From contig JAEOSZ010000066.1 of assembly GCA_016840095.1 (NCBI GenBank), forward strand, positions 32,001 through 96,000: a stretch of DNA of 64,000 bases, given 5' to 3'. The DNA comes from Candidatus Heimdallarchaeota archaeon (GTDB lineage Archaea; Asgardarchaeota; Heimdallarchaeia; Heimdallarchaeales; Heimdallarchaeaceae). A program made the translations under genes and the position numbers. A model generated the notes under the pieces. The model was not told the DNA's origin. It saw only the letters and a program-made list of their open reading frames with translations, and ran no database searches. How positions within the stretch are numbered: position 1 is the first letter of the stretch; the number at the start of each line of letters is the position of its first letter. Of the stretch, positions 16,018-42,135 are shown in pieces.

Positions 16018-16077
16018 GTGGCGATGATTAAACCGTCCCAGACTGAAATGTGATGTTCTCACGACGATATGAGCCAC
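16018..16077 (+). ncRNA. Box C/D guide sRNA (predicted LSU rRNA Gm2251 and U2593 region, E. coli numbering)
   Basis: Terminal stem GTGGC/GCCAC; C box ATGATTA (16024), D' CTGA (16043), C' GTGATGT (16050), D ATGA (16069). Guides are complementary to conserved LSU rRNA CUGGGGCGGU and CGUCGUGAGA. Confidence 0.85.
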
Positions 16078-41728: not shown

Positions 41729-41841
41729 ACATCATCAATCCTATTGAATTTATTCAACGATAAAATATTCTTTGTTGTGTTTTAAACTGTTTTTATCTAG
41801 GTTATGGGACTGCAAGAAATAAATGAATAAAATGTTGATAA

Positions 41842-41911
41842 AGGCGTCCTGCTGTTTTCCTATCATGTGTGTGAAGAGCACATCTAAGCCGTCTCAACCA
41901 GTCATTCGCCT
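41842..41911 (-). ncRNA. Box C/D-like sRNA with non-canonical compensated boxes (two K-turns)
   Basis: Minus strand reads AGGCG a ATGACTG [guide] TAGA TGTG-loop-CACA c ATGATAG [guide] AGGA CGCCT. Each box pair keeps the tandem GA and gains Watson-Crick stem-II pairs. Confidence 0.7.
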
Positions 41912-41967
41912 AACAATATTAAGAAGAAAATGAAGTATAAGTTTTTCTGTAAGAGTTTTATTATCTA

Positions 41968-42135
41968 CTATGAAGTTTTACGACCACGCTTGTATTGAGT
42001 GAAACCACACTTCCCACAAGTTTGACGATCTGGATGTTCTGCCATATATACTGCATCACCACAACGCTCACAAATCTTCTTTGTTCTAACTACCTTTTCG
42101 CCTTCTATTTTGTATCTCTTATGTGCATTGCTCAT
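41968..42135 (-). CDS. rps27ae: 30S ribosomal protein eS31 (S27ae), not ubiquitin-fused; missing from the ORF track
   Basis: Manual translation MSNAHKRYKIEGEKVVRTKKICERCGDAVYMAEHPDRQTCGKCGFTQYKRGRKTS*; follows rps24e. Confidence 0.95.
   Translation of the reverse strand: MSNAHKRYKIEGEKVVRTKKICERCGDAVYMAEHPDRQTCGKCGFTQYKRGRKTS

Follow-up and report, generated by a model that had tools for sequence, protein, structure and literature searches.

Can a box C/D guide RNA be built when none of its four boxes keeps the consensus letters? The question is raised by 70 nt on the minus strand (41911-41842) of the window, i.e. the whole 64,000-nt stretch of Heimdallarchaeota DNA analysed here, which is part of contig C49 of a 3.44-Mb source assembly (33% G+C, 165 contigs, 89% complete). 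A reading of the sequence alone had seen there a C/D-like small RNA whose boxes all deviate and yet pair again. Comparison with related genomes leads us to regard the element as a genuine small guide RNA without prior annotation, belonging to one Heimdall (Asgard) family; as the consensus boxes RUGAUGA/CUGA are not found in it, we class it as a variant among the box C/D guide RNAs and not as a canonical member. It is probably a single-guide sRNA with its own transcription, for which 2'-O-methylation (Gm) is predicted at the equivalent of G1061 in helix 34 of the small subunit (SSU) rRNA.

Sequence and layout of the RNA

Read 5' to 3', the RNA is AGGCG-A-AUGACUG-GUUGAGACGGCU-UAGA-UGUGcucuucaCACA-C-AUGAUAG-GAAAACAGC-AGGA-CGCCU, where the UGUGcucuucaCACA segment forms the hairpin UGUG(cucuuca)CACA. 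The boxes, the hairpin and the terminal stem described in the sequence-only reading are all present, and together with the flanking elements they are arranged as follows:

41968..42135, minus strand: rps27ae gene (open reading frame, 55 aa), the conserved upstream neighbour, syntenic in four genera of the family
41935..41948, minus strand: BRE/TATA-like element AGAAAAAC-TTATAC, the hexamer starting 29 nt upstream of the 5' end of the RNA
41907..41911, minus strand: 5' strand of the terminal (C) stem, AGGCG; GGC invariant, the outer A-U pair in some genomes only
41899..41905, minus strand: variant box C, AUGACUG; K-turn loop AAU, then G.A, A.G, C-G and U-A
41887..41898, minus strand: D' guide GUUGAGACGGCU, 12 nt; core UGAGACGGC invariant across four genera
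41883..41886, minus strand: variant box D', UAGA; G28 and A29 invariant
41868..41882, minus strand: hairpin UGUG-cucuuca-CACA closing the internal K-turn; 96% of its helix pair positions paired in the alignment
41860..41866, minus strand: variant box C', AUGAUAG (AGGAUA(G/U) in many relatives); G48, A49, U50 and A51 invariant
41851..41859, minus strand: D spacer GAAAACAGC, 9 nt; an orphan in the source genome
41847..41850, minus strand: variant box D, AGGA (AUGA in genus g13); A62, G64 and A65 invariant
41842..41846, minus strand: 3' strand of the terminal stem, CGCCU, pairing with 41911-41907
41829..41832, minus strand: first downstream oligo-T run, a possible archaeal terminator

All structural features of the box C/D guide sRNA class are thus found, save the consensus box letters. 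The absence of any CUGA, which the sequence-only reading had pointed out, holds for the source genome; most relatives read ACUGA, which places a CUGA string inside the C box. Rfam gave no match at gathering thresholds in the whole window and a spurious miRNA match only at E<=10 around the locus, and a tRNA search of the window found none. The small open reading frames that overlap the RNA were ruled out as coding by indels of 1-4 nt among the homologs.

Distribution and conservation

The element is recovered by blastn in all 24 other genomes of the same genus (g1), and the most distant matches narrow to the RNA proper (positions 48-118 of the 161-nt query). When rps27ae was followed through the order, the RNA was found directly downstream of it in g10, g11 and g13 as well, so that four of the family's five genera have it (g13 with two closed genomes), and it was absent from this position in the families f2, f3 and f4. 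For the remaining genus, g12 (genome G044), neither the RNA (by covariance model) nor rps27ae was found; since the gene is missing too, the assembly may have a gap there. With a covariance model derived from 30 sequences, exactly one copy, lying downstream of rps27ae, was detected in 29 of the 30 genomes of the family, and none in 52 genomes drawn from six sister families of the class. An exact copy of the 32-nt 5' half is carried by 23 species-level genomes, of which 18 are titled Heimdallarchaeota, four bear generic archaeon/Promethearchaeati titles and one is titled Thorarchaeota. The sequence-only reading had named a lack of conservation in sister genomes among the things that would speak against it; such conservation is seen in the RNA's own family, one genome excepted, and not in the six sister families searched.

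In three genomes of family f4, a tRNA gene follows rps27ae at the place taken elsewhere by the sRNA, and in two of these an intron-like insert seems to follow the anticodon region of the tRNA.

Two K-turns with exchanged pairs

Each of the four boxes has its GA unchanged throughout the alignment of 30 sequences. Also invariant are the stem nucleotides G2 G3 C4 / G67 C68 C69, the loop nucleotide U8 and, with it, A7, G9, A10 and U12 of box C, and the stem GGCG/CGCC is paired in all 27 distinct sequences. In archaeal C/D K-turns, the pair 3b:3n is mostly U:U, 4b:4n is a 'strongly conserved' G:C, and G:C or A:U at -1b:-1n is common and nearly class-specific (PMC5689011). Neither the RUGAUGA/CUGA boxes nor U.U at 3b:3n with G-C at 4b:4n are present here. 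Instead, 3b:3n, the first pair past the tandem G.A, is C-G in 25 and A-U in two of the 27 distinct sequences, and 4b:4n is U-A in all of them; neither is ever broken. The same is true of -1b:-1n, the innermost pair of the terminal stem, with G-C in 24 sequences and A-U in three (g11, g13). Position 5 of box C covaries with position 2 of box D, being C in g1, g10 and g11 and A in g13, where C11->A comes together with G63->U and the boxes read AUGAAUG with AUGA; this covariation is supportive and, stemming from few events (one genus for 3b:3n, two for -1b:-1n), not statistically strong. The proposal of a double-K-turn C/D sRNA with all four boxes off consensus is hereby borne out, as the tandem G.A pairs, presumably of sheared geometry, are kept and the two positions next to them are Watson-Crick paired. 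The replacement pairs had been extended to a third one, G13-C61, which is paired in only 10 of the 27 distinct sequences and so is no conserved trait.

A similar picture is obtained for the internal C'/D' motif. A27-U50 is paired in 25 of the 27 distinct sequences (U.U in the other two) and the next pair is U-A in all 27, so that two of the three internal pairs proposed earlier stand; the third, G52.U25, is paired in only 17 and is likewise no conserved trait. The UGUG/CACA hairpin that closes this K-turn is present in g1 and g10, and the part of the proposal that concerns it does not extend to g13, where an 8-nt loop makes the motif an ordinary K-loop. Between the two K-motifs lie spacers of guide length, 12 nt on the D' side and, in the source genome, 9 nt on the D side.

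Could so aberrant an element be a chance resemblance or a decaying relic without function? Its minimum free energy (MFE) fold is no better than that of shuffled sequences (z = 0.46), and a relaxed K-turn scan of the genome, described below, is noisy. However, the z-score says little here, K-turns lying outside the MFE model, and the RNA occurs once in each of 29 of 30 genomes of the family, its 5' half never changes, partners in its pairs have changed together, and the promoter motif ahead of it is kept, all of which speaks for a maintained RNA. Owing to this pattern of conservation we regard the relic explanation as effectively refuted.

The D' guide and helix 34

As no rRNA of the source genome was found in the assembly, targets were read from the SSU and large subunit (LSU) rRNA genes of genomes of the same genus. 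Positions 1-11 of the D' guide form 10 contiguous Watson-Crick pairs and a terminal G.U with the SSU segment GGCCGUCUCAA (three genomes), which in an alignment to rrsH corresponds to E. coli 1057-1067 in helix 34. Guide positions 1 and 11 vary among the genera, so that 9-10 Watson-Crick pairs are kept. By the N+5 rule, guide position 5 lies opposite G1061 (G1002 in the SSU rRNA of the genus), with which it forms a Watson-Crick C-G pair. The guide therefore satisfies the definition of Lui et al., according to which at least nine contiguous Watson-Crick pairs surround N+5 (PMC6009581). Helix 34 had been offered only as a tentative, imperfect target, and it emerges strengthened, with the match lying in the rRNA of the lineage itself and in the correct register. 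A run of 10 contiguous Watson-Crick pairs anywhere in SSU and LSU rRNA is reached by 0.7% of shuffled guides and by 0.6% of random genomic 11-mers, so that the statistic taken alone (p about 0.007) is modest. The 9- and 10-mer targets have no other occurrence in the 3.44-Mb assembly, and a weaker second match of the guide lies in the LSU rRNA (CCGUCUCGA, eight Watson-Crick pairs and one G.U). Most likely, judging from pairing and register, the D' guide directs sugar methylation of one helix 34 guanosine.

The family's five genera share one and the same target segment, and because guide and target are both invariant there, no co-variation between them can be observed within the family. In families f2-f4, which lack the RNA, the segment differs (GGCCCGCUCCA, GGCCCGCUGCA, GGCCCGUUCAA, GGCCCAUUGCA, GGCCCAUUUUA, GGCCAGCUUAA). 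Pattern searches of f2, f3 and f4 for orthologs with guides matching their own helix 34 returned no match apart from two in one genome (G035), the better of which was ruled out as an ortholog by a 14-nt spacer, the lack of a terminal stem and the lack of a credible D box.

Between the families of the order, by contrast, this stretch of helix 34 is unusually variable, with seven different sequences at the equivalents of E. coli 1060-1066.

The D spacer

The second guide proposed earlier, directed against the LSU A-loop (GCUGUU), found no support: the D spacer of the source genome has no complement of at least 8 nt in the rRNAs of the genus, and it is short and variable, its length ranging from 9 to 13 nt among relatives and its sequence changing even within the genus. 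In the source genome it is probably non-functional as a guide. In a subclade represented by six genomes, the D spacer is a conserved 13-mer, UAAAAGCGGGAAA, in which AAAAGCGGG forms nine Watson-Crick pairs with SSU CCCGCUUUU (genus position 1332), and which may be a newly acquired second guide. The D guide of g11, AAACUGCCA, also forms nine Watson-Crick pairs, in this case with LSU UGGCAGUUU, and the D spacer of one further genome (G004) matches only the LSU rRNA of another genome. These matches are suggestive at most, and the D side may represent a guide undergoing turnover.

The locus and its transcription

The RNA begins 56 nt past the stop codon of rps27ae and ends 113 nt ahead of the start of a 155-aa gene. 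The motif AGAAAAA(T/C)-TT(T)A(T/A)AC, which begins the stretch 27-30 nt ahead of the stem, is kept in g1, g10 and g11 amid variable sequence, and g13 has the similar AAAAGTTTATTA. This is the expected look of a BRE/TATA pair in an archaeal promoter, and we infer that it acts as a promoter from which the RNA is independently transcribed. A run of at least four T at 5-20 nt downstream, at which transcription may terminate, is found in 21 of the 30 homologs.

The position between two genes that are both syntenic in several genera also allows one to see the element as a cis-regulatory K-turn, bound by L7Ae in the 3' UTR of the rps27ae mRNA or in the leader of the 155-aa gene, and L7Ae-bound K-turns are indeed known from archaeal mRNAs (PMC5539422, PMC6298567). 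Yet a UTR element would need neither two K-motifs at C/D spacing nor an invariant 10-nt rRNA antisense, the RNA is preceded, at the right distance, by a conserved BRE/TATA-like motif of its own, and the flanks are poorly conserved on both sides; a cis element is accordingly a very improbable explanation, and a trans-acting guide is preferred.

Other guides in the genome

The sequence-only reading had extrapolated to a relaxed box code throughout the lineage and to a hidden sRNA repertoire that a genome-wide search by K-turn geometry should uncover. A strict scan of this kind gave 28 matches against five in reversed-sequence controls, the reversed genome being a poor control for TGATGA-type motifs owing to codon bias. 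A relaxed scan with a target requirement gave 16 against eight at 10 bp or more and was too noisy to size any hidden repertoire.

The C/D sRNA at 16018-16077 (plus strand) of the window has the order GUGGC-GAUGAUUA-AACCGUCCCAGA-CUGA-...-GUGAUGU-UCUCACGACGAU-AUGA-GCCAC (AUGAUUA/AUGA) and U-A in place of G-C at 4b:4n; with the rRNAs of the genus, its D' guide forms 10 bp (one G.U) at LSU CUGGGGCGGU and its D guide likewise 10 bp (one G.U) at LSU CGUUGUGAGA. Good rRNA targets are also found for the guides at C29:31382 (AUGAUGA/CUGA) and C163:11307-11375 (AUGAGGA/CUGA). A C/D sRNA with canonical boxes (AUGAUGU / CUGA / UUGAUGA / CUGA) lies at C122:140549-140603 (plus strand), and its guides match the SSU rRNA over 11 bp and 9 bp at sites 74 nt apart (genus SSU 1355 and 1429).

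A further unannotated RNA of C/D type, at C14:1220-1279 (minus strand), is conserved in g1, g10 and g11. It has the D box AUGA, a C box reading RUGAAUU, AUGAUUU or AUGACUA, A-U, U.U or C.U at 3b:3n and U-A at 4b:4n. Its guides are both conserved and have no rRNA match of at least 9 bp; the RNA may target a tRNA or another RNA.

Of the relaxed code, what persists is the exchange of G-C for U-A (D box AUGA), which is seen again in the g13 ortholog of the 70-nt RNA and in two or more other sRNAs, whereas a lineage-wide rule is at odds with the guides with canonical boxes in the same genome. Across the family, U-A at 4b:4n recurs as an alternative and 3b:3n is held loosely, and the 70-nt RNA is the extreme case and not the rule.

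Protein partners and proposed mechanism

Fibrillarin (PF01269, 308.9 bits) and Nop5 (PF01798, 225.4 bits) are encoded next to each other on contig C1, and the genome contains two genes of the L7Ae family (PF01248) and a single Nop-domain gene. L7Ae depends on three features, the box C uridine, the terminal stem and the tandem G.A pairs (PMC7994747), and each of them is present and invariant in the RNA. We propose that L7Ae would bind the terminal K-turn (stem GGCG/CGCC, loop AAU, then G.A, A.G, C-G, U-A) and also the internal K-turn or K-loop formed by UAGA and AUGAUAG, upon which the one Nop5 and fibrillarin could assemble. The 12-nt D' guide would then pair with helix 34 at E. coli 1058-1067, and fibrillarin would 2'-O-methylate the nucleotide opposite guide position 5, G1061 (G1002 of the genus). 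With its D-side spacer degenerate in the source genome, the RNA would act as a single-guide sRNA. Folding of the variant K-turn should remain dependent on protein, as in ordinary C/D K-turns, since by published rules a Watson-Crick pair at 3b:3n blocks ion-induced folding (PMC4382518).

A stem II made of C-G and U-A leaves room for a chaperone-like role without methylation. An RNP of L7Ae, possibly with Nop5, might serve as a folding chaperone or timing device for helix 34 in the pre-rRNA, with stem II or the target context blocking the methyl transfer. Such an RNP would equally have guide, target and both K-turns conserved, catalysis itself being a prediction; it would suit the loss of pair identities at 3b:3n and 4b:4n whose strong conservation has been reported (PMC5689011), and conserved guide-target pairings in which the interaction and not the methyl group matters are on record for Pyrobaculum (PMC6009581). 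Nevertheless, N+5 is a Watson-Crick C-G pair, the spacing of 12 nt is exactly that of methylating guides, other guides of this genome with U-A at 4b:4n have well-registered rRNA targets, and one Nop5 and one fibrillarin gene serve them all. We thus hold a non-methylating RNA to be unlikely and favour the methylation guide.

The RNA could also be an adaptor for a different modification of helix 34, for example cytidine acetylation as with yeast snR4, given that the CCG at E. coli 1059-1061 lies within the duplex. Counted from the yeast positions Um1269, Gm1271 and ac4C1280, the last would fall at E. coli 1060, so that the CCG under the guide may be the equivalent of the eukaryotic acetylation site guided by snR4; we treat this as a lead only. 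Eukaryotes acetylate helix 34 by means of this atypical C/D snoRNA, with a preference for CCG, and acetylation guides of the SNORD13 type use separate antisense elements, so that the substrate stays unpaired in a loop around the target C (PMC9670809). Unlike these, the present guide pairs the whole CCG in one continuous duplex and has the geometry of a methylation guide; methylation is therefore favoured, and for acetylation we see hardly any chance.

Comparison with known systems

The RNA resembles archaeal box C/D sRNAs such as those of Pyrobaculum and Pyrococcus (Lui et al. 2018, PMC6009581) in its length of about 70 nt, its terminal stem, the C/D K-turn with an internal C'/D' motif, the 12-nt spacer and an antisense that forms at least nine Watson-Crick pairs, N+5 included, at a conserved rRNA site. 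One conserved and one orphan guide, a gene adjoining that of a ribosomal protein and encoded L7Ae, Nop5 and fibrillarin are likewise shared. It differs from them in its boxes (AUGACUG / AGGA / AUGAUAG / UAGA, not RUGAUGA / CUGA), in having C-G (A-U in g13) and not U.U at 3b:3n and U-A and not G-C at 4b:4n (PMC5689011), in an internal motif that is a true K-turn with a 4-bp hairpin in two genera, and in having no Rfam family. Since 3-11% of known sRNAs are reported to have non-canonical K-motifs (PMC6009581), the deviation of its boxes has precedent in kind. The guides at 16018 and on C14, C122 and C163 have the same architecture and rRNA-complementary guides, but they keep U.U, A-U or G.U at 3b:3n and the D box CUGA or AUGA, never AGGA, and in each of them at least one box conforms to the consensus.

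In the K-turn of the U4 snRNA 5' stem-loop, which binds 15.5K/Snu13, stem II past the tandem G.A likewise consists of two Watson-Crick pairs. Unlike the 70-nt RNA, U4 has C:G at -1b:-1n, recruits Prp31 and not Nop5 and fibrillarin, and contains neither a guide nor a second K-motif. One might nonetheless speculate that the U4-like stem II did not arise by neutral drift and marks a distinct C/D RNP, an archaeal counterpart of the atypical eukaryotic helix 34 snoRNAs, which would bind the helix 34 CCG without methylating it or would control another modification there; we regard this as improbable.

Full-text searches of the literature found no treatment of Asgard C/D sRNAs, and guide RNAs of this class are barely catalogued in Asgard archaea. 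The 70-nt RNA is a natural example, with phylogenetic support, of a C/D K-turn that has exchanged its two hallmark pairs, U.U and G-C, for other pairs in an RNA whose guide remains strongly constrained. Genuine guides may accordingly escape search tools that look for RUGAUGA/CUGA or require 'at least one U of the U.U pair', and the RNA offers a ready substrate for asking what Nop5 and fibrillarin read in stem II. For the ribosome, the prediction is a Gm in helix 34, adjacent to the decoding region, that is specific to this lineage.

The rRNA genes consulted for this analysis show peculiarities of their own. The LSU rRNA of the genus, in two genomes, is about 3.4 kb long as compared with 2,987 positions in the archaeal model, pointing to large insertions or expansion segments, and three SSU genes from sister families span 1.55-1.79 kb, which suggests introns or insertions.
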